DNA from: a bacterium
Lineage (GTDB): Bacteria > Krumholzibacteriota > Krumholzibacteriia > G020349025
DNA length: 64,000 nt
Direction of reading: 5' to 3'
Assembly (NCBI GenBank): GCA_031362565.1
Contig: JANLSU010000018.1
Coordinates: 1-64,000 of the forward strand
This document shows positions 18,277 through 57,363 of the stretch, piece by piece. How positions within the stretch are numbered: position 1 is the stretch's first letter; each line of letters starts with the position of its first letter. The position numbers were made by a program, and so were the translations under genes. The notes beneath the pieces are model-generated. The model was not told the DNA's origin. It did no database searches and worked only from the letters and a program-made list of their open reading frames with translations.

Positions 18277-19515
18277 ATGCGGATCCTCGTGTTCAGCAGC
18301 CTGTATCCAAACGCTGCGATGCCGCAGCTCGGACTCTTCGTACACCGGCGGGTCGAGGCCGTAGCCCGCGCCGGCGTGCAAGTTCGCGTCGTGGCACCGG
18401 TGCCGTACTTCCCGCGCGCCATGCCGTCGGTTCGCTGGCGTGCCTATTCCCAGGTTCCGGACCACGAACGCCTCGGCAAGATCGCCGTCTCACATCCGCG
18501 TTACCTGCATGCGCCGGGGCCGGGCATGTACGTGCAAGCCTGGAGCATGGCGCGCGCCGCGCTGCCCCACCTGCGGGCGCTCCGCGCCGAATTCGATTTC
18601 CAGATGATTGATGCCCACTATGTGTATCCCGACGGAGTCGCGGCCGTGCAACTGGCCCGCGCCCTCGGGGTTCCCTGCGTGCTGACGGCGCGCGGCTCCG
18701 ATATCAATTTGCTGCCCAAGCACCGCGGCGTGCGCGAGCAGATCATGCGCGCCTTGGGCCAGGCGGATGCGGTCGTCGCAGTCAGCGGCGCCCTCGCCGA
18801 TTCGATGCGCGCCCTCGGTGCCCCGAACGAACGCCTGCACGTCGTACCCAATGGCATCGACCGTGATCTCTTCCACTACGGCGAGCCGCCCGCAGCGCGC
18901 GAGCGCCTGCGCGTCTTCTCCGACGAGAAGATGTTGCTCACGGTCGGCAACCTCCACGAACTCAAAGGCCATGCGCTCATCATCGAAGCCGTAGCGCGCT
19001 TGCGGGCGCGCGGCATCCGCACTCGGTATCACATCATTGGCGCCGGTGAGGAACAGGCCCGTCTCGAGGCCAAGATCGCAGCCCTCAAGGTCGACGATTG
19101 CGTGGTGCTCGAGGGTCCGCTCCCGAACGAGCGCCTGCGGGCCTGGTATCAGGCCGCGTCGCTCTTCGTCCTCGCCAGTTCACGCGAAGGCTGGCCGAAC
19201 GTTTTGAATGAAGCGTTGGCGTGCGGCTGTCCCGTCGTCGGCACCAAAGTCGGCGGCATCCCGGAGATCATCCGCCACGGCGAGAACGGCCTGCTCATGG
19301 AGCGGAGCCCCGAAGCGATCGCCGACACCATCGCCGACGCACTCAGCCGCGACTGGGACCGGCGCGCCCTCGCCGCCGCCGCAGCCCGAACGAGCTGGAG
19401 CGACGTTGCCGACCGTCTCGTGCAGATCTTCGCCACGGTGACCGGCGAAAGCGCGCCGCGGCGCACGATGGCGCCGGATGCGCAGCAGCCGGCGTCTCTC
19501 GTCGCACCTGCCTGA
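18277..19515 (+). CDS. GT4 glycosyltransferase (TuaC-like)
   Basis: MRILVFSSLYPN, DAHYVYPDG, TARGSDIN, EGWPNVLNEALACG. Confidence 0.9.
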   Translation: MRILVFSSLYPNAAMPQLGLFVHRRVEAVARAGVQVRVVAPVPYFPRAMPSVRWRAYSQVPDHERLGKIAVSHPRYLHAPGPGMYVQAWSMARAALPHLRALRAEFDFQMIDAHYVYPDGVAAVQLARALGVPCVLTARGSDINLLPKHRGVREQIMRALGQADAVVAVSGALADSMRALGAPNERLHVVPNGIDRDLFHYGEPPAARERLRVFSDEKMLLTVGNLHELKGHALIIEAVARLRARGIRTRYHIIGAGEEQARLEAKIAALKVDDCVVLEGPLPNERLRAWYQAASLFVLASSREGWPNVLNEALACGCPVVGTKVGGIPEIIRHGENGLLMERSPEAIADTIADALSRDWDRRALAAAAARTSWSDVADRLVQIFATVTGESAPRRTMAPDAQQPASLVAPA

Positions 19516-19518
19516 GCG
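19275..19518 (+). repeat. GT4 3'-end repeat, copy 1 (within the intact gene)
   Basis: Homologous to 22500-22729 and 25030-25261; all begin CCACGG and end GCACCTGCyTGAGC. Confidence 0.92.
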
Positions 19519-19546
19519 AATTACTACCCCAAACGCGGCCCTCACT

Positions 19547-19571
19547 CGGACGGACCCCGCGGTCTCGTCCG
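19547..19571. terminator. Hairpin between convergent GT4 and kinase genes
   Basis: CGGACG-GACC-ccgc-GGTC-t-CGTCCG. Confidence 0.45.
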
Positions 19572-19576
19572 GCAGC

Positions 19577-22246
19577 TCACTTCGGCATCCGTTGGGTCCA
19601 GTTGGCAATCACGGTAAGCGGCTTGCCGACGTCGCCGTCGGCGGGGCGCCGGGCGATGAAACGCTGGCCGTCGGGTGAGACGTCGAAGTCTTCCATCGGG
19701 TGGCGGAACACCTCGCGGGGCGATGAGAAGCGCGGCACTGGACCGGGCTCGACTGTGACGGACATGACGCGGTCGGGCCGGGCGAGGAAGAACAGTTCAC
19801 GGGCGTCGGCACGCCAATGCGGCAGGCGGCCGCCCTCGCTCGAGACTTGCCACTTGCCCTGTTCACCGTCCAACGACTGCACGAAGACTTCCCAGCGGCC
19901 CGACTGCTCGGAGGAGTACGCGAGCAAGTGATTGTCGGGCGACAGGGTTCCGTCTTCGTCCAAGAACGGTGTCGAGACGAGCGGCGCGATGGCCTTCGTC
20001 ACCAGATCGAAGCGGAAGAGATCCTGGCTCGATTCGCCGCCGACTCCTCCGACCACGAGCCAGCGACCGTCGGCGGACGCATCCAGCGGCCACATGCCAT
20101 TGTCCGTGGTTCCCATCTCCACGGCCGAGCCGGCACCGTCGGACGACCGGCGAAAGACGACGCCGTCGTTGCGGCGATCGTTCGCGTAGTAGATGTAGCG
20201 ATCATCGCGCGACCACACCGGGAAGCTCTCGCCGCCATCTTCGAACGTCAGGCGGCTTGCCGCACCCCGAACGAGGTCCTGGACCCAAAGGTCCGTGGCT
20301 CCCTGCCCCGGGCTGTTCACCGCGAAGGCCAGGCGTTTGCCGTCGTGCGACAGCGCGAACTCGCTGAACAGCTCGCGGTCACGAATCACTTGCATGCCGA
20401 CGCCGTTCCGGTCGAACCATGCGAGCGACGAGAACGTGCCGCGGCTGCCCTCTCGATAGACGAGCGTGCCTTGCGTCGAGACGCTGGCCAAAGCTTGCTC
20501 GTTTTGGGTGTACGCGACGGGTGCCGCGATCGACACCGGATCGCCGGCAACCTTGAGGCCGCCCGGATCGAAGCGCACGGCGACCAGTGCGCCGTCGCGC
20601 CAGAAGAGAATTTGGCCGCTCGGTGCGAAGAGCGGCGAGGAGTTTGCCGTGATGAGCCGCGTACGCTTCCCGGTCGCGACTTCGAGCGCTTCGATCGCGC
20701 TCTCGTCGTTGCGTGTGCCACCTTCGGCGGTCTGCGCCAAGAAGAGAATCGTCTTGCCGCCGGGAAGGAACACCGGGAACCGGTGGCTCTTTTCCTTGCG
20801 CGCGATGTCGAGTTTCGTGAGATCCGTGGGCGTCCCGCCACTCGCGGACACGATCGAGAGGCCGGTGCGAAAAGCGCCGGTAAAAATGATCCGACCGTCA
20901 GTGCCCCACGCGCCACCGCGCGGCGTGGGTGCGTCGCAGATGGCTTGCGCAGTCCCGGCTTGCAAATCGAGCCGCTCGAGCTTGCCCTCGGCGAAGAACC
21001 CGAGTTGGGACCCATCCGGAGACCAGAATGGCATCTCGCCACCCTCGGTCGGCGCGAGCCGCGTCGCCGCGCCGCGGTCGAGTGAACGCAACCAGAGGGC
21101 CCGCGCACCGGTTGTCTGGTCGTAGGCTTCGAAGACGATGCGCTGTCCGTCGGGGGACACGGCGAATGTGTCACCAAACCCCGTGCCGTCCGGCGCGACG
21201 AATGCGGCTTCGAGGACACGCGACGGCGCTGCGCTGTGACGCGCGCCGCGCCACAGCGATGCGAAGCCAACCGCTGCAACCACGCCAGCCGCGGCAACAA
21301 TCCAAGCGAGCTTCGACGGCTTCCGTGTACCCGAGATCGTCGCGACTCGTGCGGCGGCGTTCTGTTCGTCCCGATGTGGATCCGCCAGAACCTCTTCGAT
21401 CACGATGCGAGCATCGCCCATGGCCTGCAAGCGTTCACGCGGCTTCTTGCGCAGACAGCGACGCACGAGATTCACGATCCGCTCGGGAGTCCCGGCGGGA
21501 AGCGCTGTGAAATCGGGCGCGTCCTTGAGAACCGACGCCAGCACGTGTGACGTCGTCTCGCCCTCGAAAAGCCTCTGGCCGGTCAACATCTCGTAGAAGA
21601 CGACGCCAAAGGCCCAGATGTCGGCGCGCCGGTCGACGGCGCCGCCCACGGCCTGTTCGGGCGCCATGTAAGCCGCCGTGCCGAGGATGGTCCCCATCTG
21701 CGTCGCACGGTGCGTCAGAGTCGGTGAATTGAGGACCTGGGACTCGGTCGGGTTGGCGCCACTCGGATCCAGCGCCTTCGCCAAGCCGAAGTCGAGGACT
21801 TTGACCTTGTGATCCGGCGTCAATTTGATGTTCGCGGGCTTCAGATCGCGGTGGACGATGCCCCTTTCGTGAGCCTCCTCGAGCGCCTCGGCGATCTGGC
21901 GCGCGATGGACAGGCTGTCCTCGAGCGGCAACGCGCCTTGCGCCAGACGCTCGGACAGCGTGTATCCCTCGACGAGTTCCATGACGAGGTAGTCGGTCTC
22001 GCCCTCGCGCCCGACGTCGAAGAGCGTGCAGATGTGCGGATGGTTGAGCGACGAGACGGCGCGCGCCTCACGCTCGAATCGCGCCCGCAAGTCGGGGTTC
22101 GAGGACAACTGCGCCGGTAGCACCTTGACTGCGACCTCGCGGCCGAGCCGCGTGTCGCGGGCGCGATAGACCTCGCCCATGCCGCCCGCGCCGAGCGGCG
22201 AGACGATCTCATAGGGGCCGAGGCGGCGGCCGGAGGGGAGGGTCAT
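19577..22246 (-). CDS. Hanks-type Ser/Thr protein kinase with TM and TolB/PD40 beta-propeller
   Basis: [25 protein letters not shown]; repeated SPDG motifs. Confidence 0.93.
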
Positions 22247-22367
22247 CGCATTCCTTTGGTGAGCGCCACCGAAGCCATAGCCAGCGGAGAGAGTAATGCC
22301 TGGGGATCGATACGGCCAACGCGGAATCGTCGCACCCGGCGGCGGGTTGTTCGATCGCGGGTGTCGC

Positions 22368-22502
22368 GGGCTCGAAACACAGCGGACCTCCGCGCGTCGC
22401 CGCGCTTCAGCCCTTCTTGGCCTTCGCCGCTTGCCGGCGCCTTCGTGGCCATCCTCGGCTCCTTCGGCGCTGCCGGAACCGACGGCTTATGCCCCAGTTC
22501 CA
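22368..22502 (-). repeat. Remnant of DUF4340 3' end, spacer and DJ-1 start codons (copy A)
   Basis: Matches about 30475-30611 and 24898-25032; encodes ELGHKPSVPAAPKEPRMATKAP versus native ELEPGYKPPAPAAPKPPKMAAKAP. Confidence 0.9.
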
Positions 22503-22729
22503 CGGTCAGAACTGCTTGCTCATTGAGCGCAGCCCCAAGCCATCGCCGACGCCCTCAACCGCGACTTGGACCGGCGTGCCCTGGCCACAGCCGCGGCCGA
22601 ACGAGCTGGAGCGATGTGGCGGACCGCCTCGTGCAAATCTTCGCGACTGTGACCGGCGAAAACGCACCGCGGCGGGCGACGGCGCCGGATGCGCTGCTGC
22701 CGGCGTCTCTTGTAGCACCTGCTTGAGCT
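22500..22729 (+). pseudogene. GT4 3'-end fragment, copy 2 (frameshifted)
   Basis: Ends RTSWSDVADRLVQIFATVTGENAPRRATAPDALLPASLVAPA*, nearly the native GT4 C-terminus. Confidence 0.9.
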
Positions 22730-22735
22730 GGTAAC

Positions 22736-24280
22736 CTACCGAACCACGACAGTGCGGGCGGTTGCAATCATGCGACCGGTGGCATTCTCGACCCGGAACA
22801 CGTAGCAACCGGCGCGGAGCGAGTGCACCGGCAAACCAATGGCTCCGCCCGCGCCAGGAGCGATGTTCTGCCGGAGTACCAAGCGGCCCCCGACGTCAAA
22901 CACAGAGACCGCGGACGCCGGGCCCGATGTCGTGCGGTCGGGCAGGCGAAGCATTGCCTGTGAGCGGCACGGAGTCGGCTCTACGGTGGCGACGAACGGC
23001 CGTACCGGTCCAAGCGTTGCATCGGTGGGAGAAGTCGCCGGTCGTTCCAAGACAAGGGTGTTACCGAAGTTGGTGTTGCCATCAAACGTCCAATACAGCT
23101 CGTCCCGACCGTTCTTGTTGACATCATAGTGAGTCAGGAGGGTGTGCGATGCGTTCGGGTTTGGATCAGCAATCACGTCCGCCAGCACCCACTGCCCAGG
23201 AGCAACCGCCCTCTCCACGAGAAGCTGCCGGTAGACCAGCCAAGCATACTCAGGATTGCCCACGCCGTCCGTATTCGCGATGCAGTTCGACGACGCGCCG
23301 CTTGCACTCGTGCAAACCCGTATGCTACCCACCCGCGAAAACGTATTGTCGCTCGTCGCCTCGTACACCCTCGTGAGGTATCCGCAGGAGCTGTCACCCG
23401 CAACGAACAATTCAGGCTTGCCATTCCCGTCTGTATCGAAACCACCTGCGACGGCGTACGCATTGATCATCCCAGTCGTATCCGTAAATGTTTCCTGCCA
23501 GACGTCGTTCGCTGGCGACTCGAAAATATGCAGATAGCCGTTGGTACCGCAAAAGGCGATCTCCAGGAGGCCATCCTGATCCAGGTCGGCGATCACTTTC
23601 GCACCACTCTCTTGACTGCCGCTGGTCAGAGTATTGAGTTTCAGAGCGAAGGTATTGTCGCCGGTACTCTCAAAAATTAACAGGCGTGACGAACCCGAGT
23701 TTCGCGAGTGGAGGATCTCAAGGTTTCCGTCGCGGTCGGTGTCGCCCACGGTCGAATACCCGATGATATTCGGCATGGGGCCAGACTGCCACACGAGAGA
23801 CGTTGGGTACTCCCCGGGGCTCAGTGATTCGTACATGCGAAGCACCCCCCCGTACTGCCCGATGACATCGGCTTTGCCGTCATGGTCAATGTCGCCAACC
23901 GCATATGGGGTCATCTCCGGACCAGAAAACGATTGATTGAAAGTACCATTGTTCTTGTCGTATTCCAGGATTCGATATGTGAAGGTGTCGCTCGTACTGA
24001 CACCTCCGCTCGCTTCGGGACTTCCATCGTGATTCGCGTCGCCAAACAGCGGCGGGATATAATAGAAAGCGAGCGTTTGGGCGATAACTTGAAACGAATC
24101 CGGTCCGGAGCTCGCTCGGAGGTCAACCTGCAACGGGCGTGCGTCCGCCGCCGTTTCAAGGGCGACACCGCGTCCAATCTCCGGACGAATCATTCGGACC
24201 GGCCGGATTGCACCCGCTTCACCCCAGGCAAGGCTCGGGGCCACGAGCACAGCCAATAGAAAAGCCAGCGCAGCGTGCAT
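22736..24280 (-). CDS. Secreted FG-GAP/VCBS-repeat protein with C-terminal sorting-like domain (paralog 1)
   Basis: Signal peptide; GDIDHDGKAD, GDTDRDGNLEI, ADLDQDGLLEI, DTDGNGKPEL, DVNKNGRDEL; C-terminal VFDVGGRLV...AGCYV. Confidence 0.85.
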   Translation of the reverse strand: MHAALAFLLAVLVAPSLAWGEAGAIRPVRMIRPEIGRGVALETAADARPLQVDLRASSGPDSFQVIAQTLAFYYIPPLFGDANHDGSPEASGGVSTSDTFTYRILEYDKNNGTFNQSFSGPEMTPYAVGDIDHDGKADVIGQYGGVLRMYESLSPGEYPTSLVWQSGPMPNIIGYSTVGDTDRDGNLEILHSRNSGSSRLLIFESTGDNTFALKLNTLTSGSQESGAKVIADLDQDGLLEIAFCGTNGYLHIFESPANDVWQETFTDTTGMINAYAVAGGFDTDGNGKPELFVAGDSSCGYLTRVYEATSDNTFSRVGSIRVCTSASGASSNCIANTDGVGNPEYAWLVYRQLLVERAVAPGQWVLADVIADPNPNASHTLLTHYDVNKNGRDELYWTFDGNTNFGNTLVLERPATSPTDATLGPVRPFVATVEPTPCRSQAMLRLPDRTTSGPASAVSVFDVGGRLVLRQNIAPGAGGAIGLPVHSLRAGCYVFRVENATGRMIATARTVVVR

Positions 24281-24378
24281 CGAGGAGCCTCCCGAGGATA
24301 CCCCTCCAGCATAGCCCTTCGCGCTTGAGGGCGCATCGTGAGTCCGGCGGGAGCCGTTCGAGGCGTGAAAAATTCGCG

Positions 24379-24910
24379 CTAGGCGAGCGTGTCTTCGCGG
24401 AGGGCCTGTGCGGGCGCCGGGCCTTGTAACGCGTCGACGAGCGTCAGCGCGAATTCCAGTGCGGTGCCGGGGCCGCGGCTGGTGATGATGTTGCCGTCGC
24501 GGACGACGCGGGCTTGCGAATAGACGGCGCCGCCGCTCCGCACTTCGGCTTCGACGCCGGGGAAACTCGTCGCGGCGCGGTCGTCGAGCAGGCCGTGGGC
24601 GGCGACAGCGCGCGGCGCGGCGCAGATGGCGGCGAGCAGGCGGCCGGCGTGGGCTTGCGATTTCAGCATCGAGCCGAGGGCGGCACTGGCGGCGAGATTC
24701 GTGTTGCCCGGCTCACCGCCGGGCAACACGATCAGATCAAACGAAGCCGACCGCACCGCGTCGAGCGCGGCTTCCGCCTGCACCCTGATGCCATGCGCGC
24801 CCTCAACCGGCCCGGCGCCTTCGAGCCCGGCGATCACGACCACGACATCGAATCCCGGCGCGCCGTAAGACGTCGATGAGGGCTGCGAGCGGCACGAGGG
24901 CTCGAAAAAC
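24379..24910 (-). pseudogene. DJ-1/PfpI pseudogene (duplicate of 29936-30487)
   Basis: Body highly similar to the intact copy. Start GTG changed to GTT, the FEEIEAVT-coding segment is deleted, and there is a frameshift near 24850-24870. Confidence 0.88.
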
Positions 24911-25032
24911 AGCAGACCTCCGCGGCGTCGCCGCGCTTCAGCTCTTCTTGGCCTTTGCGCTTTGCCCGGTGCCTTGGTGGCCATCCTCGGCTCCTTCGGC
25001 GCTGTCGGAGCCGACGGCTTATACCCCACCCA
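24911..25032 (-). repeat. DUF4340 3' end remnant and spacer (copy B)
   Basis: Encodes GYKPSAPTAPKEPRMATKAPGKA; matches 30488-30611. Confidence 0.9.
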
Positions 25033-25261
25033 CGGTCAGAACGGCTTGCTCATTGAGCGCAGCCCCGGAGCCATCGCCGACGCCCTCACCCGCGACTGGG
25101 ACCGCCGCGCCCTGGCTGCAGCCGCGGCCCGGACGAGCTGGAGCGATGTCGCGGACCGCCTCGTGCAGATCTTCGCGACCGTGACCGGCGAAAACGCGCC
25201 GCGGCGCGCGACGGCATCGGATGCGCAGCAACCCGTGTCTCTTGTAGCACCTGCCTGAGCG
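25030..25261 (+). pseudogene. GT4 3'-end fragment, copy 3 (frame still open)
   Basis: HGQNGLLIERSPGAIADALTRDWDRRALAAAAARTSWSDVADRLVQIFATVTGENAP...SLVAPA*. Confidence 0.9.
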
Positions 25262-25267
25262 AGTAAC

Positions 25268-26755
25268 TTACCGAACCACGACAGTGCGGGCGGTTGCAAT
25301 CATGCGACCGGTGGCACTCTCGACCCGGACAACGTAGCAACCGGCGCGGAGCGAGTGCACCGGCAAACCAATGGCTCCGCCGGCTCCGGGAGCGATGTTC
25401 TGCCGGAGAACCAAGCGGCCCCCAACGTCAAAAACGGAGAGTGCTGACACCCGGCCCAACGTCGTGCTGCTGGGGAGGCGAAGCGTTGCTTGCGCGCGGC
25501 ACGGCGTCGGCTGCACCGTAGCGACGAACGACTGCAGCGGACGCCACGGCGAGTCTGTGGGACTGGTGGCGGGGCGCTCCAAGACAAGAGTATTTTCGAA
25601 GGGCACGTTCACCTGGGGGACCCAATACAACTCATCCCGACCGTTCTTGTTCACGTCGAAGGAGGTCAAGAGAGTATGCGATCCGTTATCGGTTATTACG
25701 TCAGAAAGGATCCACTGCCCAGGTGCCACCGCTTTGTAAACTTGAAGGTGCCGGTCAATGACGCAAACATATTCGGGGTAGCCCACACCATCCGTATTCG
25801 CAACGCAGTTCGCAATGGCCAAAGGCCCAAACCGCGCCACTCGCACAAACGAGTTGTTGCCGTTCGACTCATAGACGATCGTGCCGAGGTTTCCGGCAAC
25901 GAAGAGTTCAGGCTTGCCGTTGCCATCCGTATCGAAACCACCCGTCGCGGCGTAAGCGTTGAAATTGCCGGTCGACTCCGTGAACGTCTCCTGCCAAACG
26001 TCGTTCGTGGGAGACTCGAAGACATGCACATAGCCTCTGCCGCCACAGAATGCGATCTCCTGAAGGCCGTCCTGGTCGAAATCAGCAATCACCTTGGTGC
26101 CGGTTTCCTGTTGACCGCTCGTCAGAACGTTCAATTTCAAGGCGAAGGCGTTGTCGCCCGTGTTTTCAAAAATCACCAGTCGAGACGAGCCTGAATTTCG
26201 CGAGTGGATGATCTCGAGGTTACCGTCGCGATCCGTATCGCCCACAGCGTCATACCCGATGGTGTTGGTCATGAACGGCGATTGCCAGACGAGAGTTGCT
26301 GGGTACTCCGTCGGGCTGAGCGACTCGTACATGAAAAGCTGGAAGCCGTATTGGCCGATGACATCAGATTTCCCGTCGTGGTCGATGTCCCCAACGGCGT
26401 ATGGATCCATATACGTGCCCGTGAACGCCTCGTGGAAGCCGCCATCCTCCTTGCTGTACTCCAGGATTCGATAAGAGATCCCGCTGCTCGAATTAACGTG
26501 GCCGCTCAGCTCGGGACTTCCGTCGTGATTCGAATCGCCAAACAGAGGCGGGATGTCAAGAAAGGCCAGCGTTTGCGTGATGACTTGAAACGAATCCGGC
26601 CCAGCGGAAGAGAATCGAGCACCAACTCCGCCTGAACCCGCCTTTGGAACGGGCGGGAGTTCAAAAATCCGAACCGGGCGGACAGCCCCCCCCTCGCCCC
26701 AGGCAAGACTCGGCGCCACAAGCAGGGCGAACAAAACAACCCACGCGGTGCGCAT
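25268..26755 (-). CDS. Secreted FG-GAP/VCBS-repeat protein (paralog 2)
   Basis: Collinear with 22736-24280; GGAGG RBS before ATG 26755. Confidence 0.85.
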   Translation of the reverse strand: MRTAWVVLFALLVAPSLAWGEGGAVRPVRIFELPPVPKAGSGGVGARFSSAGPDSFQVITQTLAFLDIPPLFGDSNHDGSPELSGHVNSSSGISYRILEYSKEDGGFHEAFTGTYMDPYAVGDIDHDGKSDVIGQYGFQLFMYESLSPTEYPATLVWQSPFMTNTIGYDAVGDTDRDGNLEIIHSRNSGSSRLVIFENTGDNAFALKLNVLTSGQQETGTKVIADFDQDGLQEIAFCGGRGYVHVFESPTNDVWQETFTESTGNFNAYAATGGFDTDGNGKPELFVAGNLGTIVYESNGNNSFVRVARFGPLAIANCVANTDGVGYPEYVCVIDRHLQVYKAVAPGQWILSDVITDNGSHTLLTSFDVNKNGRDELYWVPQVNVPFENTLVLERPATSPTDSPWRPLQSFVATVQPTPCRAQATLRLPSSTTLGRVSALSVFDVGGRLVLRQNIAPGAGGAIGLPVHSLRAGCYVVRVESATGRMIATARTVVVR

Positions 26756-26919
26756 CTTACGCCTCCAGGAGCCGTGCGTTCCTAGCATAGCCCCTCGGGA
26801 TCGAGGTTACAATCGGCGGAGCCTGGCACATCCTGCCGAAGAGCGTTGCCCATTGCGTCCGAATCGCAGGATCACTGCGGTTCTGTTCGGAGTACGCCGG
26901 GCGTTCGAACCACAATCAG

Positions 26920-27768
26920 TCACTCTCGCAGCACAACCCTCTGGTTCAGGGCGACGGAACCTGCACTGAGTCGGACGAAGTAGATGCCGGCGCTGACGCG
27001 GCTCCCGGAGTTGCTTCGGCCGTCCCAGGCATGACTGAAGGCTCCGGCCTCGAACGTCCTGTGCGCTAGGTCCCTCACCACCCGCCCCGTCACATCGTAT
27101 ATGCGGAGCGTCACGGGTCCCGAAGTTGCGAGCTCAAAATCAAGAGTGACAGACGAGGAAGCGCCCTGCCGTACCGTGAGAAACGTTTGCCGCGGACGTA
27201 CGGGTTGCTCCGACGAGGGCATGTTGCTCGCCTTCGACTGCCCCCCCGTCGCGCTCGTCGTTAGGCTGATTGCGAAATCAGATGCCAGCGGGACAAGCTC
27301 GCCACTGCTGCCACATGCGACGTAGCTTCCATTCGGCGAGTCGATGTCATCGGCTCCGAGCGCGGGGCCCTGTCCAAGGCCCTGTTTGCCCGTCCCTGCC
27401 GGCGAGCAAACGCCAACGCGGTAGGTACCCGCTTCCGAAGCGACGACTGGCGACGGCCAAGTGACGGTAACCACTCCACCGGACGCTTCCCGAACGTTGG
27501 CAACTGAGGCGACGGTAGTGCCGTCCCACAAGCTGTTCTCACCTCCGCGAACAAGGACTACGACAGGAAACACCGTCGCAGGATCGTTGTTGACGAACTG
27601 CGCCCCCAGGATGGTTGTCCCCGCCGCAACGGGAAAGGCCTTCACGAAGAGCGCGACGCCATCGGATGGGACGAGCCCTACCATGCGATCAACGGCGGCC
27701 CCGGTATTCGCCCAAAAGCTGCAAGCTCCCAAGGCGACAGCCAGCGAGTTCAGTAGTCGGGTTTTCAT
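26920..27768 (-). CDS. Secreted protein with C-terminal FlgD Ig-like domain
   Basis: Signal peptide; IYDVTGRVVRDL...WDGRSNSGSRVSAGIYFVRL. Confidence 0.8.
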   Translation of the reverse strand: MKTRLLNSLAVALGACSFWANTGAAVDRMVGLVPSDGVALFVKAFPVAAGTTILGAQFVNNDPATVFPVVVLVRGGENSLWDGTTVASVANVREASGGVVTVTWPSPVVASEAGTYRVGVCSPAGTGKQGLGQGPALGADDIDSPNGSYVACGSSGELVPLASDFAISLTTSATGGQSKASNMPSSEQPVRPRQTFLTVRQGASSSVTLDFELATSGPVTLRIYDVTGRVVRDLAHRTFEAGAFSHAWDGRSNSGSRVSAGIYFVRLSAGSVALNQRVVLRE

Positions 27769-27793
27769 CAGCACCACCTTTTTCTTGGCCTTT

Positions 27794-29572
27794 TCAATCA
27801 ACACAGGTCAGAACCCTGAAGGTCTTGGATTGATTCGCCATTTGCGGAGGGGAGTATCCAGCACGAGTGCTCATCACGGTGTAGGTCCAGTAGCCAGACT
27901 CGCAGGTGCATGTCGTGGAGACGGAGTGACTCGTTGTCGCGCTGGAAGGTGTGGCGGTTGGCTTGTAGTTAACATTGCTCGGCGAGATCAACGCGACGCT
28001 GTCCTCGCCATCGGACCAGAGATTCGTCGACCAGGAGGCAGTAAGGTTGAGCACCATGCCTGCGTCGACCGAGTGCGAAGTTGATATAGACGATTGCACG
28101 ATACCATAGAGCTGGATGGGTGACGTGTACGCCTTCATCTGAGTGCTGTCTTGCCGGCTGTCGGCCCACACCGGGTACGCGACGCCGTCTCCGGCGGCAA
28201 CCGCAATGTAGTCGCCCGCGCTTCCGGGGGCGCTACCAGGTGGCCGGTCACCGGTCCACGACGCGTCGCTCACTTTGAGTTCGTTGAAGGTCGAGCCCCG
28301 GTCGTACGAAACCGCAAGGTACATCTCTGCCCTTGTCGAGATGTTGCGGCTATCGAAGTACGCGACGACCAGGGCTTTCATGCCGTTGTCCCAAGCAATG
28401 GCGGGCAGCCATTGATCCGCAGTTCCCGCGTCCTGGTTCACTCGTTTGGGAGCCGATCCCAACGCCGTCCAGTCTCCTCCCCCATTTGTTGATTTCTTGA
28501 GGTAGACGTCAGCATCGGTGCCGGTCAAACTTCTCTGACCCCAGGCAATGTAGATGTTCGCCTGATCATCGACCGCCAACTGCGGCGCAGAACTCGCTCC
28601 CATATTCTTCCCCGAGAGTTCCTCTCGACTCCCGTAGCCCTTGCCGCTTCCCAGGTTGTAGACTGCTGTCGGTGGATCCGCGAGAATTGGCGACCAAGTG
28701 ACGCCTGCATTGACCGGCGATTTGCGGAAGAAAATCGAGCTTGTCGGTCCCGTAAGGCCATCGTGGGTCTGCGGCCAAGCCGCGTACACGGCCCCCAGGT
28801 CGCTGGGGCTGATCCCGACCGTCAGAACCACGCCCCACTCGCCATAACCCCTCTCGCCCGGGGGCTCTCCGCCCTCGTCGATGCGCTGGTCGCCACCCCA
28901 GGAAACTCCGTTGTCTGTTGAACGCTTGAAGTGCAGTTCGTGGGAGTCGAGGTCTGACCATACGGAATATAGATTTCCTGCGTTGGATCCGGTGCTATTG
29001 TCCGCCCAGAGGAAACCCTTGTCGGTATGCGCGCTCTTCCCCAGATTGTCGGTGATGATGCTTTGGCCGGACCAGGTAGTCGACGTTCTGCTGTCCTTGA
29101 AGACGGCCTGTTGTCCAAGAGCGAGAAGGTCATTGTCCGGTGTGCAGCCTGACTGAGGTGGCGTGGCACATGGATAGTTGGGATCGCTCTCGGGCAGAGT
29201 GAGGCTTTGAACAAAGTAGCGAATCGCCCCGGAGCTGCTTCTGCATATCACCACGCTCGGGTCGCCTTTGCCGCCGTGGGGTGGTTGGTTATTGCCGTGC
29301 CAATGGTGCCCGCCGTCCTGTGACACCCATCCCGCGGCGGCGCCTGCGCCTACGAGCACATTGAGGCCCATGAGCACGATCCGGGAGTTGGTCGGGTGAA
29401 CGAAGGCCGAGGTCTCGAAGCCGAGCGCTTCAATCACCGTGTTGGTCGTCGCCGTGGTCGAGTCTCGAACTAGAACGTCCGGTGAATCAACAAGCACCAC
29501 TGCTCTGGAGGGCGAACTCCAGAGGCCGCACGCGAGTGCAGCCGCAAGCAACGGAAAGCGCGCCTTGCTCAT
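27794..29572 (-). CDS. Secreted BNR/Asp-box (sialidase-like) beta-propeller protein
   Basis: Asp-boxes SQDGGHHW, STDNGVSW, STNGGGDW, SYDRGSTF; DQW.P, GDY, WADSR. Confidence 0.8.
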   Translation of the reverse strand: MSKARFPLLAAALACGLWSSPSRAVVLVDSPDVLVRDSTTATTNTVIEALGFETSAFVHPTNSRIVLMGLNVLVGAGAAAGWVSQDGGHHWHGNNQPPHGGKGDPSVVICRSSSGAIRYFVQSLTLPESDPNYPCATPPQSGCTPDNDLLALGQQAVFKDSRTSTTWSGQSIITDNLGKSAHTDKGFLWADNSTGSNAGNLYSVWSDLDSHELHFKRSTDNGVSWGGDQRIDEGGEPPGERGYGEWGVVLTVGISPSDLGAVYAAWPQTHDGLTGPTSSIFFRKSPVNAGVTWSPILADPPTAVYNLGSGKGYGSREELSGKNMGASSAPQLAVDDQANIYIAWGQRSLTGTDADVYLKKSTNGGGDWTALGSAPKRVNQDAGTADQWLPAIAWDNGMKALVVAYFDSRNISTRAEMYLAVSYDRGSTFNELKVSDASWTGDRPPGSAPGSAGDYIAVAAGDGVAYPVWADSRQDSTQMKAYTSPIQLYGIVQSSISTSHSVDAGMVLNLTASWSTNLWSDGEDSVALISPSNVNYKPTATPSSATTSHSVSTTCTCESGYWTYTVMSTRAGYSPPQMANQSKTFRVLTCVD

Positions 29573-29802
29573 CTTTCCACCAGTCCTTTCCGAAAGATTG
29601 TTCAGTTCGTTGTTTCACTGCCTCCGGTGCTCAAACGACTTCGGCGAATTCGACTTGAACGATCAGCGAGCTGGCTACGATGCACGAACTCGCGCAGGCC
29701 ATCCATGCGAGGTCGGACTCACCGCACCGTGCCGCAATTGCCCAAGGCACGCCGGTGAATGCGAGAATCGCAATGGCTCGAATCCAGATAGACCCAACCA
29801 TA

Positions 29803-29814
29803 CCCCCCCCCCCC
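29803..29814 (-). repeat. G12 homopolymer (C12 on plus strand)
   Basis: Directly visible; longest homopolymer I found in the window. Confidence 0.9.
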
Positions 29815-29935
29815 GGCGTCAAGGAGAATCAGCGCATTCGTCAAAGTTGCTTGTGGTGCGGTTCAGAAATTGCGAGCTCAAAGTACGGTCGTCGACGCCG
29901 ACAGGCAGCTCGTTGCGCTCGTGGAAAGGGTCGCG

Positions 29936-30487
29936 CTAAGCGAGGGTGGCTTCGCGGACGGCTTGTGCTGGCGCCGGGCCCTGCAACGCCTCCACGAGCG
30001 TCAGCGCGAATTCCAGCGCGGTGCCGGGGCCGCGGCTGGTGATGATGTTGCCGTCACGGACGACGCGCGCCGTCGAGTACACGGCTCCCCCGGCGCGCAC
30101 TTCCGCTTCGAAGCCGGGGAAACTCGTCGCGGCGCGGTCGTCGAGCAGGCCTTGGGCGGCGAGAACGCGCGGCGCGGCGCAGATGGCGGCGAGCAGACGC
30201 CCGGCGTGCGCTTGCGATTTCAGCATCGCTCGGAGGGCGGCACTGGCGGCGAGATTCGTGGTGCCCGGCTCACCGCCGGGCAACACGATCAAATCAAACG
30301 ACGCCGACCGGACCGCATCGAGTGCGGCGTCCGCCTGCACCGTGATGCCATGCGCGCCTTCGACCGGGCCGGCGCGGTCGAGTCCGGCGACGACGACATC
30401 GATTCCGGCGCGCCGTAACACGTCGATGATCGTCACGGCTTCGATTTCCTCGAAGCCGGCCGCGAGCGGCACGAGGGCTCGAAACAC
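29936..30487 (-). CDS. DJ-1/PfpI (YajL/ThiJ-like) glyoxalase III family protein
   Basis: GFEEIEAV, LPGG.PG, AICAAP, TSRGPGTA. Confidence 0.92.
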   Translation of the reverse strand: MFRALVPLAAGFEEIEAVTIIDVLRRAGIDVVVAGLDRAGPVEGAHGITVQADAALDAVRSASFDLIVLPGGEPGTTNLAASAALRAMLKSQAHAGRLLAAICAAPRVLAAQGLLDDRAATSFPGFEAEVRAGGAVYSTARVVRDGNIITSRGPGTALEFALTLVEALQGPAPAQAVREATLA

Positions 30488-30513
30488 AGCAGACCTCCGC
30501 GTGTCGCCACGCC

Positions 30514-31527
30514 TCAGCTCTTTTTCGCCTTCGCGGCTTTGCCCGGTGCCTTCGCGGCCATCTTCGGCGGCTTGGGCGCCGCCGGAGCCGGCGGCTTGTA
30601 CCCGGGTTCCAGCTCTTCGGCTTTCCTCATGATGTTGACGAGATTGCCCTTGAAGAGCGTGAACACCACGTCCGAGCCGTCGGCCTTGGCCAGCGTCCGG
30701 TTCTCATCGACGGAGATGAAACTCACGACATGCGGCGCCCCACCGGCGTCGACCCGCAGACGGAAGTCGGGCGCCGACCAATCTTTGCCGGCCGTCTCTT
30801 CCGGCGTCGCGAACTCGACCGTATTGAGACGCGCCACGTTACTCGCAACGCGGGCCGCCGCCGTCGAATCCGCCCGTGCCGCCGGATGCGCCCCCGACTG
30901 CAGGTTCCAGTGCGTGCTGTCGGCGCGTGCCAGCGTCACCACGACCGGCGGCTTGTCCTTCGGATATTCGAGGACGATCTTTTGGATCTGCTTCTCCTCG
31001 AGCTTGAGGATCGACTTGTCACGCCAGTCTTTCGCCGCGTGGTTGAAGTTGTATGAAATCACGCCGCCGGCGCGGTAGACCTCGTCCCGGTCGGCGTAGC
31101 GCAGGTACGTGTGCGTGTAGTCCGTGCTCGCCTTGCCGATGATGGCCGAAAGCGCCAGCTTGTCTCCGGTCCAGATCTTGACCGCGGTGCCGGTGGAATC
31201 CACCTCATACGTCGTCCGGTTGGCAGGATTGCTGGAAATTACGTCCTCGAGCTTAAGCTCCTCGACCGATTTCAACATCCCCTTGATCATGTCGGTATTG
31301 GCCGGATACTCGAGCGGCTTCGTGAGCTTCCACTCTTCACCGGTGCGCACCAGCTCGACGTCGCCGTCCTTGCCGTGGATCTCGACCTTGGTGACCTTGT
31401 CCGCTTCGATCTTGACGGTCTGTGCGGGGCCGGCGGCCACGATTTTCTTGTGCTGCTGGCGCTGCAGGAACATGAATCCGAGCAGCACCACAAACACGAC
31501 GATCAAACTCTGCATTCGTCTTGTCAT
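30514..31527 (-). CDS. DUF4340-like protein of the Gld-type ABC operon
   Basis: N-terminal TM, W.L.KP..YPA, WRDK; typical position after GldG-like gene. Confidence 0.75.
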   Translation of the reverse strand: MTRRMQSLIVVFVVLLGFMFLQRQQHKKIVAAGPAQTVKIEADKVTKVEIHGKDGDVELVRTGEEWKLTKPLEYPANTDMIKGMLKSVEELKLEDVISSNPANRTTYEVDSTGTAVKIWTGDKLALSAIIGKASTDYTHTYLRYADRDEVYRAGGVISYNFNHAAKDWRDKSILKLEEKQIQKIVLEYPKDKPPVVVTLARADSTHWNLQSGAHPAARADSTAAARVASNVARLNTVEFATPEETAGKDWSAPDFRLRVDAGGAPHVVSFISVDENRTLAKADGSDVVFTLFKGNLVNIMRKAEELEPGYKPPAPAAPKPPKMAAKAPGKAAKAKKS

Positions 31528-51090: not shown

Positions 51091-52737
51091 ATGATTTCCT
51101 TCAACTCCATCAGCAAGCAGTACGGACGCCAGGTTCTCTTCGTCGAAGCCACGTTCCAACTGAACCCGGGCGAGAAGGCCGGGCTCGTGGGGCCGAACGG
51201 CGCCGGCAAGACGACTCTCTTCCGCATGATCGTCGGCGAAGAATCGCCCGACGAAGGCGATGTCAGTCTCCCGAAGCGCGTCTCGATCGGTTATTTCCGG
51301 CAGGACATCGGTGAAATGTCGGGCCGGAGCGTGCTCGACGAAGCCATCGCCGGCAGCGGCCGGCTGGGCGACTTGCACCATGAGCTGGCCGACTTGGAGC
51401 ACGCCCTCGGCGATCCCGAGCAGGCCGACAACATGGAGAAGTTGCTCGGGCGTTTTGGCGAGGTGCAGGACGCTTACCAGCAGGGCGGCGGCTACGATTT
51501 GGAAGCGCGGGCTCGCGAGGTGCTGCACGGGCTCGGATTCGAGGACGCGGTCGTCGATGGCGACGTCGGCGCCCTGTCGGGCGGCTGGAAGATGCGGGTC
51601 GGATTGGCACGCGTCCTCTTGGGGCGCCCGGACGTGTTGCTCATGGACGAGCCCACGAACCACCTCGATATCGAGTCCATCTTGTGGCTCGAGCGCTTCA
51701 TCCGCGACTACCCGGGTGCGGTGTTCATGACGTGCCACGACAAGGACTTCATGGACCGGGTCGTGAGCCGCATCGTCGAAATCGACGGCGGCGAACTGGT
51801 GAGCTACACCGGCAACTACGAATACTACGTCCGCGAGCGCGCGCTGGCGGAAACCAACCGCGAAGCCGCGTACGCGCGCCAACAAGCAATGCTCGCCAAG
51901 GAGAAACGCTTCATCGAGCGTTTCGCCGCCCACGCGGCCAAGGCGGCGCAGGTGCAGAGCCGGGTCAAAAAGCTCGACAAGATCGAGATGGTCGAGCTGC
52001 CGCGCCGCCGCAAGGTGGTGCGATTCGATTTTCGCCAGCCGCCGCGTTCGGGCGACGACGTCGTGTCGCTGGAAGGCGTCGCCAAGGGCTATGGCGGCCG
52101 GGTCATCTACGATGGCTTCGACATGCGAATCCATCGCGGCGAGCGCTGGTGCGTGATGGGCCGGAACGGCGCCGGCAAGACGACGTTGCTCAAGATCGTC
52201 GCCGGAACCCTCGAGCCGGATCGCGGCACTGTCAAGCTGGGCGCCAATCTCAAGGTCGGATACTTCGCGCAGCAGTCGCTCGATCTGCTCGACCCGGCGC
52301 TCAATGTGTTCGAGCAGATGCAGCGCGACTTCCCCAAGGAAGGCCAAGGCGCGCTGCGCACATTGCTCGGCGCTTTTCAGTTCTCGGGCACCGACATCGA
52401 CAAGCCGGTGCGGGTGCTTTCCGGTGGCGAGAAATCACGCCTCGTTCTGGCCCGCATGCTCTTCGATCCGCCCAACTTCCTGATCCTGGACGAGCCGACC
52501 AACCATCTCGACTTGGAAACCAAGGAGATGCTGGTGTCCGCGCTTCGGAACTTCGAAGGCACGATGCTCTTCGTGTCGCACGACCGCACGTTCCTCCGGG
52601 GCCTGAGCAACCGCGTTCTGGAACTGCGCCCCGGCGACGGCAACGGCATCCCGGCGCAGCCGCCGTTGCAATACTCGGGCAGCTACATCGAATTCGTCGA
52701 GCGCACCGGCCAGGAAGCGGCCGGCGTCCACAACTGA
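51091..52737 (+). CDS. ABC-F family ATPase
   Basis: Two NBDs (GPNGAGKTT and GRNGAGKTT; LSGG; DEPTNHLD twice), no TM. Confidence 0.93.
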   Translation: MISFNSISKQYGRQVLFVEATFQLNPGEKAGLVGPNGAGKTTLFRMIVGEESPDEGDVSLPKRVSIGYFRQDIGEMSGRSVLDEAIAGSGRLGDLHHELADLEHALGDPEQADNMEKLLGRFGEVQDAYQQGGGYDLEARAREVLHGLGFEDAVVDGDVGALSGGWKMRVGLARVLLGRPDVLLMDEPTNHLDIESILWLERFIRDYPGAVFMTCHDKDFMDRVVSRIVEIDGGELVSYTGNYEYYVRERALAETNREAAYARQQAMLAKEKRFIERFAAHAAKAAQVQSRVKKLDKIEMVELPRRRKVVRFDFRQPPRSGDDVVSLEGVAKGYGGRVIYDGFDMRIHRGERWCVMGRNGAGKTTLLKIVAGTLEPDRGTVKLGANLKVGYFAQQSLDLLDPALNVFEQMQRDFPKEGQGALRTLLGAFQFSGTDIDKPVRVLSGGEKSRLVLARMLFDPPNFLILDEPTNHLDLETKEMLVSALRNFEGTMLFVSHDRTFLRGLSNRVLELRPGDGNGIPAQPPLQYSGSYIEFVERTGQEAAGVHN

Positions 52738-52779: not shown

Positions 52780-55700
52780 TCACAACCGGAACAGGGCGTT
52801 CTTACGCCGTAGTTGGAGGACCTTGGCGTCGGGGTCTGCGACGACGAGTTGTGGCTCGAACGGGCATTCGAGTTTGAACTCCGCCGACTGGCCGGCCGCA
52901 GGCGTCACCGTGGTCCGCTGTTCGCTGTAGTCCTTCGTGACTGCGGCGGGGCCCTGCTTGGCTTGGTCGGGTGTTTGTTTTTCGAATCGCTCGCCGCGCG
53001 TGGCGGCGACCTCGACCGGCATCGTGCCGGTGCCCTGGTTCTTGACGGTCCCGGTCACGGTCCAGTGATCGCCGTCTTGAGTTTTCTTGACTGCCTGGAA
53101 TTCATACTCGGGCACGACCACCGTGAAGAACCACTGTTTCGTGAAGGCATCGTAGGCCGTCGAGTCGGGCGCAAAGGGCCGCAATTCCTCCACGAAATCC
53201 TGCAGGAGCGCGTGATCGGGGTTCGCGAGGCGGTTCTTCAGGAACGCCTGGATTCCGGCGAGATTGTGATCCCGTCCCATGACGTTTTGCAGCATCCAAA
53301 ACACCCAGCCGCCCTTGTCGTACATGACGGTCGTGTCGCCGGTCTTGCTGCCGTCGATCTTGACGAGCGGGCGCTCGGCGTCGACGTTGCGATTCTCGCC
53401 GTAGCGTTCCTCGATCCGTTTGGCGAACTCGGTGCGGCCTTGCAGGCCGTTCATTTGCTCGTCCAACATCAAGGTCGAAAAGTGCGCCATGCCCTCGCTC
53501 AAGATGTCGCCGCCCGGTGCATCACCCGGGACGAGCAGATTGCCCCACCATTGGTGCGCCGCTTCGTGTGCCGTGACCATGAAGGCCGTTCGCGCTCGCG
53601 GGTCCGACAGCGTCAAGAAACCAATGCCCTCCGAGAACGTAATGTCGGTCGCGAAACCCTGGGCATAGCTCGCCAGGTTCGCGAACTCGCTCAATTTGAG
53701 CTCGTTCCAGGGGTAGGGATAGAACCACTCGGAGTAGTACCGGCGAGCGGCATCCAGCGCGTGGCTCATCTCGTCGATGTTGTAGGTGTGGCCCGGGTGG
53801 TAGTAGATCGCCGTCCCTGTACCCCGTTTGACGGCCCACTTCCCCGCTACGATATTGAAGAGCGCCACCGGATGATCGCTGACCCATTCCGCGTGCCGTT
53901 CATCGCCTTCCACATGCTCGTCGACGAGCGTGCCGACGGAGTTGTAGGTGTATTCCTTGGGTCCGTGCAGCCGGATGTGCGTCGTGAAGGGCGTCCGCGT
54001 ATTGAACGACGCCTTCACCATCCCCTTGTAGTAGTCGTCCGGGTAAACGCGCGGCTCGAACTGGTTCTCCTTCGGCTCGACGCCGATCGCTTCCAGGTAC
54101 CCCACGACCGGCGCCAAGACCGGCGCGAAACCCGTCAACACGGCACCCGACGGCTCGATGAATTCCATCATGCCGCCGCCGTTCCGGGTGATGCCGTCGG
54201 GGAACTTCGTTGCGTAGTCGAAGCTGATCGCCAGGCTGTCGCCCTGGGCGAGAGCGAGAGCCGGCGTGAACACGAACAGGTTGGTGCGGTTTTCCGGCGT
54301 ATAGTCCGCGCCCGCCATCTTCCACTTGACGTCGCGAATATGCGTCGCGAGTGTCAGCGCGATCTTGCGGAGCGGCGCCGCGTCGATATTGACGAACGTG
54401 AAGGTTCCTGTCGAGTGAATGGCGTGGCGGCGCGGCTGCAAGCCGACGTCGAGTTCGAGATGCGCGATGGCCGGCACCGGTGCCTCGCGCCACGTCCCCA
54501 GGTTCTGCTTCCAGTAGTCGCGGTCACGATGCTTGGCGGCCCGGGACTGGAACCCGTTCGAGACCTGCATCCCCAACAAGATGGCGAGCGCGATGATGGG
54601 CAGTGCATAGGGCAAAAGGCGCAGCGAACTCCGCAACATCCGCGCGGGCGCCAGCCGGTGCAGGATGCGCGTCGCATCGAACTCGCGCCTGGCAAAGAGC
54701 CGCACCGTGAGCGCGATCCAGAAGACCGACCCCAAGAGCGCCAGCACCCGGTTCAGAACGAGCGGCCAGCCGTTCGGCTCGAGGAGTCCCATGTCGCTCC
54801 AACGAATCGTGCTCCACAGGTCCCAGTTCCACACCCAGTTCATCTTGTCGCGGCTTTGCAGAAGCCCCGTCACGATGAGTGCTGCAAGCGCCAAGGCGTA
54901 CGTGCCATAGCGATTCCGGATCACGGCCATGAGCGCCATCACGAATGACGACCAGAGCAAGAACGTCGGTACGAGGAGCAAGCCCCAGACAATGAGGAAT
55001 GGCCGCAAGTCCATGCTCGCCTGGTGCTGCGCGAGCTGAATGATGGCGCCACCCAGCCAGGCGGCAAGCAGGATAACGACCGCCACCGCGCAGTTCGCGA
55101 CCGCCTTGCCGAGCAACATCGCTCCGGTGCGCGTCGACGTGCTGGCATAGATGGGATATAAACCGGTCGCATGCTCACGATCGAACGACTCGACGGTGTA
55201 GAAAAGCAGCAGCAGGACGATCGTCAGCGTCAGTGTATCGAACGTCAGCGACGTGAACAGCCCGGGGGTGACAAGGAGCCGGGTGCCCCAAGGCCCCGTC
55301 GCAAAATATCCAGCCTGGATGGCCTGCAACAGGATGAGTGGGATGAAGAGATAGAGGCCGGGTGAACTTGCCAAGTTGCGCAGCTCGAAGCGCGCAATGG
55401 TCCACGCCTCGCGTACGAGCCCCTGCGGTAAGCGGCGCATAGCGAGGGCCGCAAGCGTCCGGCCGCCGGATTCGAAACCACCGTCAGCGTCCGTTGCGGC
55501 TGCGGAGACCGGCGATGCGACGGCGCGGCGAGCGCGGCGCCGCCCGCGGGCGCTCACTTGTCCCCGCACGCTGCGTCCGAAGTGGCGTGCACTCCACTCC
55601 ACGGCACCGAGTCCAGCCAAGACGAACAGGGCGCGGCTCAGTAGAAACGGCGCGTCGTACGCGACCGCACGCGTGTTGTAGTACTCGACGCCACGGTCCA

Positions 55701-57320: not shown

Positions 57321-57363
57321 CGAAAGGGCCTCCTGGCGCCTGCCACCCATCGCCGGTCAATGA

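Follow-up and report, generated by a model that had tools for sequence, protein, structure and literature searches.

The classical work on tandem duplication in bacteria is said to be that of Reams and Roth in Salmonella. Tandem segmental duplications are described, in part of PMC11111574, as head-to-tail units that meet at a microhomology join point and expand by unequal homologous crossing-over; the literature on tandem duplication and amplification with join points also includes PMC13167724. Minimal mobile elements of Neisseria, as a portion of PMC1797815 describes them with reference to Saunders and Snyder 2002, are small and often surface-related gene sets, without mobility genes of their own, that lie between conserved flanks and are thought to move by homologous recombination through those flanks. 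The present analysis concerns an array of three gene-bearing units at 19275-30611 of a 64,000-nt window, which is part of contig C32 (67.8 kb) of G000, a Krumholzibacteriota metagenome bin of 5.4 Mb, 133 contigs and 65% GC. Serial arrangements of cargo are also known from rhs/cdiA orphan cassette arrays, in which each module is led by a host-gene fragment that can recombine into the expressed copy and continues in frame into a variable toxin tip, with an immunity gene after it, and from the cassette arrays of integrons and integrative islands accreted in tandem at the 3' ends of genes, where duplicates of the target-gene 3' end mark the unit boundaries. The array studied here is probably an evolved, remodelled remnant of a tandem segmental duplication, formed by illegitimate duplication and unequal crossing-over and altered afterwards by deletions or replacements.

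Self-blastn of the window resolved three head-to-tail units, with arm copies as direct repeats at spacings of 3225 and 2530 nt and with two internal joints, joint 1 at 22500..22502 and joint 2 at 25030..25032. In the alignments, both joints fuse the 3' end of a DUF4340 gene to the 3' end of a GT4 glycosyltransferase gene at one CCA, and this CCA is common to both parents, lying in the native DUF4340 tail (which ends at 30611) and in the native GT4 tail (which starts at 19275). A whole GT4 gene (18298..19515, start approximate, + strand; Pfam Glycos_transf_1 and Glyco_transf_4) is present at the left end only, and a whole DUF4340 gene (30514..31527, − strand; domain matches) at the right end only. 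The native left arm (g0, 19275..19535, + strand; blastn and alignment) holds the last 80 GT4 codons and ~20 nt past the stop, and the native right arm (d0, 30514..30611, − strand; domain matches of the parent gene) the last 32 codons of DUF4340. At joint 1, arm d1 (22365..22502, − strand) takes in the opening 16 nt of DJ-1, the spacer between DJ-1 and DUF4340, and a copy of DUF4340's final 32 codons in which 1-nt indels break the frame, and arm g1 (22500..22728, + strand) is a GT4 tail copy with two 1-nt deletions and a 12-nt deletion shared with its counterpart at joint 2. That counterpart, arm g2 (25030..25268, + strand), is in frame, and it is joined to arm d2 (24895..25032, − strand), which consists of the DJ-1 upstream spacer and a DUF4340 tail copy; all four internal arms were delimited by blastn and alignment. 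All internal DUF4340 tails carry frame-breaking indels. In the self-blastn comparison, the native GT4 tail (19275-19525) was 81.5% identical to 22500-22728 (E 4e-62) and 82.5% to 25030-25268 (E 1e-69), the DUF4340 tail region (30472-30611) was 82% identical to 22365-22502, DJ-1 with the DUF4340 tail (29931-30603) was 84% identical to 24374-25026, and unit 2 (22365-24106) was 76.7% identical to unit 3 (24895-26602). No further copy of the arms was found anywhere in the 5.4-Mb genome. The three units, the same CCA at both internal junctions and an array assembled out of the ends of a convergent gene pair through a single microhomology joint that recurs all agree with an initial annotation of the window. 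That annotation had also given every unit a DJ-1 gene and had placed intact GT4 only at the left and intact DJ-1 and DUF4340 only at the right; the GT4 and DUF4340 placements stood, unit 1 has no DJ-1, and the unit-2 DJ-1 proved nearly full length and damaged.

Set beside tandem duplications as presented in that part of PMC11111574, the locus has the same head-to-tail units, one novel joint at a microhomology of a few bases and no need of a recombinase, the same joint recurs at every internal boundary, and the boundary genes are whole only at the outer ends. The joint is moreover absent from single-copy relatives, in which GT4 and DJ-1/DUF4340 are unjoined. Known tandem duplications, in the portion of that literature drawn on here, are for the most part recent and unstable and consist of identical units, whereas this array is old (dS 0.25-0.5), seems to be fixed and has unit-specific genes. 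It agrees with a tandem duplication on most points and departs from one in the non-uniformity of its units. As in the minimal mobile elements of PMC1797815, so far as they are described there, the flanks (GT4 and DJ-1/DUF4340) are conserved in relatives and mobility domains are absent; unlike the contents of those elements, which are strain alternatives that replace one another, the units here are stacked in series, and the fragment-to-fragment joint seen here does not feature in that portion of the description. No alternative gene set was seen at this site, where five relatives are empty but distant and the sequence of the only close relative ends before the interval. The rhs/cdiA orphan arrays resemble the locus in that gene fragments offer potential homology, but here the arms derive from two genes, stand apart from the cargo and run on the other strand, and the cargo is not toxin/immunity. 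The literature on orphan cassette arrays includes PMC3967940.

Searches for mobility machinery gave no matches at the locus. Phage_integrase (PF00589) had no match on contig C32, the genome's three matches being on C70 and C130, and none of the 48 window open reading frames (ORFs) scanned with Pfam carried a mobility domain, in keeping with the absence of integrase and transposase stated in the initial annotation. No inverted repeat was detected at joint 1, one 16-nt palindrome lies near joint 2, and Rfam had no match at the joints; by this combination of inverted-repeat and Rfam searches, which did not include a dedicated attC model, no attC-like hairpins were found at the joints. Promoter and terminator scans were uninformative (one promoter-like site against 1.6 expected, 13 terminator-like sites against 10.8 expected). 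Unlike an integron, the locus has no IntI-type recombinase on the contig and no attC-like hairpins detected at its joints, and unlike an integrative island it has its repeats joined together as a duplication joint and not flanking an element as attL and attR; it is neither. A narrow literature search met with no account of an old tandem array whose arms come from two convergent genes and whose cargo differs from unit to unit, and no claim of absence from print is made. The locus is best read as ordinary duplication followed by remodelling, well preserved, and a capture platform was not borne out.

The two internal GT4 tails (J1 and J2, at joints 1 and 2) share the 12-nt in-frame deletion, which is present in none of the 45 full-length GT4 orthologs (60-94% identity), and across both arms 37 sites have J1 and J2 alike and different from native, against 21 sites that differ in J1 only and 16 in J2 only. 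Because of the shared deletion and the 37 shared differences from native, both joints evidently descend from one event. In the last 23 GT4 residues, which are fast-evolving, the internal tails depart from native at 5 positions and the 94% ortholog P0001 at 10, so the arms derive from this lineage's own GT4; import of the internal arms from the GT4 of a distant donor was rejected, as the tails are closer to native than this ortholog. Synonymous divergence (dS) was 0.47-0.53 between native and internal arms, 0.24-0.27 between J1 and J2, 0.29 between native DJ-1 and its unit-2 copy, and 0.49-0.64 between the window and its orthologs in L025, a close relative that represents a sister lineage. The native-to-internal and J1-to-J2 values point to two steps, at dS ~0.5 and then ~0.25, and by this measure the first event is estimated to be about as old as the L025 split and the second about half that age.

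The assembly of the array is sound. Sequencing run X1, which holds 94% of the sampled words and is probably the source sample, has been assembled separately as Logan contigs, and these cover the array in eight pieces at an even depth of 10.4-13.4; joint 1 lies within record 3 (22174-22766) and joint 2 within record 5 (24707-25298), each spanned with 0 mismatches and at the depth of the flanks. Exact repeats between units reach at most 50 nt, less than a read length, and this settles which arm goes with which cargo. No alternative joint was supported in the Logan contigs of four runs, which drop rare variants and of which one holds the locus well (X2, X3 and X5 gave short pieces only, at depth 2-4); the alternative joints listed either fall within the conserved kinase domain, which attracts sequence from many other organisms, or have sides of <30 nt. 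A serial joining of variants of the locus from different strains might be thought of in a 133-contig metagenome bin whose Logan unitigs break, and break only, where the units are most alike, but collapsed variants cannot create a joint of DUF4340 tail to GT4 tail, and the copies are 8-25% different, far above strain variants. Together with the bridged joints and the shortness of the shared exact stretches, this makes an assembly artefact extremely improbable. Tandem repeat runs were also seen at the starts of other contigs of the genome, with a period of 339 nt at C43:1-4652 and C113:1-2531 and of ~150 nt at C30:1-794 and C95:1-785, and these are probably repeat-domain proteins that broke the assembly.

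Relatives were searched for the ancestral state of the locus. The DUF4340 protein matched five of the six other family genomes searched, and context was taken for all five, four of which extend past DUF4340; DJ-1 directly follows DUF4340 in all four (G001, G003, G005 and G006). GT4 is convergent on DJ-1 across a gap of ~0.7 kb in G003, and in G001, G005 and G006 an NTP_transf_5-like gene comes next and GT4 is missing. The metagenome locus L028 (GT4 66%, DJ-1 71% and DUF4340 55% aa identity) again has GT4 convergent on DJ-1, with a gap of ~0.2 kb. Between DJ-1 and the next conserved gene, none of these five lineages, distant as they are (DUF4340 41-55% aa identity), holds cargo, against 10.4 kb here, and because none of the five has a gene there the ~10-kb interval is read as an expansion in this lineage. 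The comparison of the GT4-DUF4340 interval across relatives that the initial annotation had proposed yielded, in these five lineages, no cargo and no recurring junction. The only close relative, L025 (88% nt identity over 3.6 kb), ends 48 nt into the repeated DUF4340 tail, before the interval; a contig stop inside the repeated stretch (L025:3500-3617) would fit a repeat there too and proves nothing, and the possibility that the DUF4340 tail of L025 is of the internal-arm type was rejected on comparison.

Of the 11 loci that a metagenome scan with an ABC_transp_aux alignment returned, nine were analysed (L025-L033) and L034 and L035 were dropped (30-31% identity); L030 and L031 have the same tblastn identities as G005 and G006 and were not counted as independent. 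A metagenome scan with the DUF4340 protein alone gave 182 pattern matches and no relatives. In a contig scan with the GT4 alignment, only L036 (68%) among the 80 loci kept is an ortholog, the rest being at ≤48%, and no other gene of the locus lies within its 6,981 nt; the GT4 orthologs at 68% are labelled Krumholzibacteriia. A 98-aa ORF spanning the joint had 54 candidates in a protein collection, none of which scored. In all, the family genome, metagenome, contig and protein scans turned up the joint in no other genome, contig or predicted protein.

Each unit carries its own cargo, all of it on the − strand. Unit 1 holds a Ser/Thr kinase with a PD40 beta-propeller (19577..22246; Pfam). The query with this kinase gave 21 matches in its own genome, the best paralog at 43% aa, and it is 70% and 69% identical to a tandem pair in G001, which belongs to a cluster of four large kinase-PD40 genes (G001:C4:31421-48385, loci L122/L123). 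Further genes of the cluster have counterparts on C131 (56%) and C46 (68%) of G000. The 70% and 69% matches are of the same order as these two other ortholog pairs, by which the kinase is taken to be a resident family gene and not foreign; since the best matches of the G001 cluster are scattered over C131, C32 and C46 at 56-70%, the family appears to have been rearranged between genera. DJ-1 homology in unit 1 is limited to the intergenic spacer, the DJ-1 ribosome-binding site (RBS) and GTG plus four codons, that is, the first 16 nt of the gene (22365-22380). From the retained RBS and GTG runs a 45-codon leader (22243..22380, − strand; translation and frame check) whose stop overlaps the kinase ATG (ATGA), and this overlap suggests that translation of the kinase may be coupled to the old DJ-1 start. 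The ~25 nt past the native GT4 stop (within 19516-19576) still align with the FG-GAP-bearing units, including the position of the FG-GAP stop codon, and this hints that unit 1 may once have held an FG-GAP gene after the GT4 stop.

Unit 2 holds FG-GAP protein 1 (22736..24280; Pfam, ncbifam and dS windows), with a signal peptide and a weak type IX secretion system (T9SS) tail match, and a DJ-1 copy (24379..24900, − strand; omega 0.21) that is 88% identical in aa to native, lacks nine in-frame codons near the N-terminus, in a stretch that presumably includes a glutamate conserved in the DJ-1 family, and has GTT in place of the GTG start. Unit 3 holds FG-GAP protein 2 (25268..26788, likely start 26755; Pfam and dS windows), a protein with a FlgD_ig / T9SS type A sorting tail (26920..27804; Pfam FlgD_ig, and TIGR04183 at 25.7 bits, above the cut-off of 23), a 592-aa protein with no family match above threshold in profile searches (27794..29572), and the native DJ-1 gene of glyoxalase III type (29936..30487, − strand; Pfam, with TIGR01383 above cut-off). 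The label 'BNR' that the 592-aa protein had received in the initial annotation is backed by a single Asp-box match that, at 16.8 bits, falls below the cut-off of 27; partial paralogs of the protein lie on C35 and C33, and G001:C7 has a 37% homolog beside an FG-GAP gene. Units 2 and 3 have in common ~60 nt preceding the FG-GAP start, and their similarity breaks off no more than ~10 nt from the DJ-1 stop, so the FlgD_ig and 592-aa genes form a clean 3.1-kb indel between the two units. FG-GAP genes adjoin homologs of the FlgD_ig or 592-aa proteins elsewhere, at C33:11401-13799 and C35:3933-9077 of G000 and at G001:C7:65488-68965, and because such pairs recur at several loci and in another genus they are regarded as a recurring secreted-protein module. 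The subfamily formed by FG-GAP 1, FG-GAP 2 and a copy on C64 is lineage-specific, relatives reaching only 43%, and there the gene adjoins a homolog of the 592-aa protein. Tandem gene arrays are frequent in the genome, which lends support to duplication as the origin of the array: local repeats occur on 30 contigs and include an FG-GAP pair on C35, and a far larger secreted-protein array lies at C45:13654-39860, where some eight units of ~3.28 kb follow one another head to tail and each closes with a FlgD_ig-type tail.

To the left of the array, GT4 on the + strand closes a polysaccharide-synthesis cluster with five GT4-type transferases, Wzy_C, an asparagine synthase, a deacetylase and an NTP_transf_5-like gene. 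To the right, on the − strand, an ABC operon comprises an ATPase, an ABC-2 permease, a GldG-like ABC_transp_aux protein and DUF4340, followed by DJ-1, and all array cargo is oriented as this operon. In functional terms, the array is predicted to extend a gliding-type transporter operon on its downstream side by a kinase and secreted proteins. Further along the window, a 62-nt inverted repeat (79%; 52157-52218 and 57162-57223) brackets a 1526-aa Peptidase_M1-domain gene at 52780-57360.

The order of events and the route of remodelling that we infer are as follows. In the ancestral locus, GT4 faced DJ-1, DUF4340 and the ABC operon with no gene between GT4 and DJ-1, and secreted-protein genes would later have been added there in this lineage. 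An illegitimate exchange at the 3-nt CCA would then have joined DUF4340 codon ~305 to GT4 codon ~325 and duplicated the interval (~dS 0.5), and unequal homologous crossing-over between the two units would have produced a third unit with a copy of the joint (~dS 0.25). Redundancy of the units may have allowed each to lose or swap different parts, so that unit 1 would have been left with the kinase only, behind the DJ-1 translation start, unit 2 with one FG-GAP gene and a damaged DJ-1, and unit 3 with the other FG-GAP gene, two more secreted-protein genes and a working DJ-1. For units 2 and 3, the simplest route would be differential loss from a larger unit holding two tandem FG-GAP paralogs; FG-GAP 1 would most simply be a chimera made by deletion between two such paralogs, or alternatively its body may have been replaced, and the kinase of unit 1 may by another route have arrived by ectopic insertion. 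Because all cargo reads in the operon direction, the array would amount to an extension of the ABC operon by a run of additional genes for surface and signalling functions. Tandem duplication, unequal crossing-over and later deletions or replacements explain the anatomy, and the dedicated mechanism proposed in the initial annotation is unnecessary.

Several findings weigh against this reconstruction. The units are not alike along their whole length, and the claim that cargo differs beyond the divergence of the units was upheld: the kinase is unrelated to FG-GAP, the 3.1-kb indel separates units 2 and 3, and the FG-GAP bodies are at dS ~1 against 0.1-0.3 for their flanks, so several extra events are needed, and no larger ancestral unit was seen. 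Between FG-GAP 1 and FG-GAP 2, dS was 1.0 and dN 0.21 overall, with dS of 0.75-2.4 in 60-codon windows, but the last 46 codons, which adjoin the GT4 tail, had dS 0.11 and dN 0.02, and FG-GAP 1 is nearer to the C64 paralog (73% aa, dN 0.16) than to FG-GAP 2 (68% aa). On these values FG-GAP 1 is a mosaic with a young 3' end and an old body. The cargo edges fall at gene ends (~10 nt from the DJ-1 stop, ~60 nt before the FG-GAP starts and ~25 nt past the GT4 stop), and they look more cassette-like than random deletion, though selection for intact genes could yield them. The internal GT4 tails form a further anomaly. Omega was 0.155 for native versus J1 (20 synonymous and 11 nonsynonymous changes), 0.115 for native versus J2 (21 and 9) and 0.20 for J1 versus J2 (13 and 8), and a parsimony count makes 13 of the 22 changes that followed the J1/J2 split synonymous, where 26-35% would be expected under neutrality (12 mutation spectra, P 0.001-0.016); the DUF4340 tail, with 31 codons, has too few changes for such a test. 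The same internal copies carry frame-breaking indels, including the two 1-nt deletions of the J1 tail. By these counts the internal GT4 tails do not appear to decay neutrally, and duplication with remodelling does not explain the combination of selected-looking changes and broken frames.

The anomaly may stem from part-time residence of the arms in the working position, from selection that acts indirectly when arms convert the working gene, or from chance. As a source of clean arms, gene conversion by the native tail was considered and rejected, as the frequency needed should have homogenised copies that are yet 18% different. Antisense 'shadow' ORFs over the GT4 tails share third-codon positions with GT4 but are not in one frame in J1 and J2, and are not taken as genes. 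It is quite unlikely that the internal fragments are kept clean by selection through recombination with the working GT4 and DUF4340 ends, at a recombinase-free cassette site where units are added, dropped or exchanged between strains. If this were true, the uncultured lineage could vary secreted and signalling proteins beside its surface-polysaccharide cluster, and if the cleanliness of the fragments held in more genomes, the implication would be that silent fragments remain active in recombination and visible to selection, a new point on the evolution of silent repeats.

The broader proposal of the initial annotation was a capture hotspot without a recombinase, able to expand and contract. 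In the form weighed here, units would excise as joint-bearing circles by recombination between arms, move between cells or strains and re-integrate in Campbell fashion through either arm, so that units with different cargo build up. Such a platform would account for cargo that differs inside shared flanks, for FG-GAP bodies older than those flanks, for cargo edges at gene boundaries and for the lack of a recombinase nearby; the nonsynonymous deficit of the internal GT4 tails, which is expected if arms swap into the working gene position, keeps a dynamic model alive, and the end of the L025 contig inside the repeated tail, as contigs do end at repeats, is a weak point in its favour. It is nevertheless unlikely. 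The single origin of both joints argues against repeated or continuing capture, and neither circles nor copy-number variants were found; frequent cycling would keep the arms alike, but their divergence is old and they carry frame-breaking indels. Even depth and the lack of a supported alternative joint in the source sample, where contigs can hide rare variants, speak against expansion and contraction. One cargo breakpoint falls inside FG-GAP, outside the arms, the kinase is a family member passed on vertically, the joint was met in no second genome, contig or predicted protein in the scans made, and the five related lineages have an empty site with no alternative cargo. An array that was built by duplication and owes its cargo differences mainly to later imports, namely an ectopic insertion of the kinase and replacement of an FG-GAP body by a diverged paralog that came from elsewhere or from another strain, is likewise improbable. 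It would fit the absence from the genome of an FG-GAP donor closer than dS ~1, as expected of an outside source or a lost donor, the grouping of FG-GAP 1 with the dispersed C64 copy, the position of the G001 kinase orthologs in the kinase cluster and not at this locus, and a gene-sized FG-GAP module, including a leader of ~44-60 nt, that is common to three loci. It needs illegitimate insertions, however, which are rarer than deletions, and the FG-GAP chimera can be had by one simple deletion between tandem paralogs, of which the pair on C35 is an example. The low GC of the cargo was rejected as a sign of foreign origin, since 0.57-0.62 is a family-wide trait of all eight FG-GAP copies measured in the genome.

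Read as a remodelled tandem duplication, the locus has a bearing on how such structures persist. Bacterial tandem duplications are usually seen while young and are short-lived, and this one would be a long survivor whose joint can still be read to the base. Its copies would have been trimmed to complementary gene sets and, with no mobile-element machinery involved, newly added genes for surface and signalling functions would have become fixed where an operon ends. The array would thereby provide a dated example of gene-family expansion and operon growth through duplication plus differential loss or replacement.

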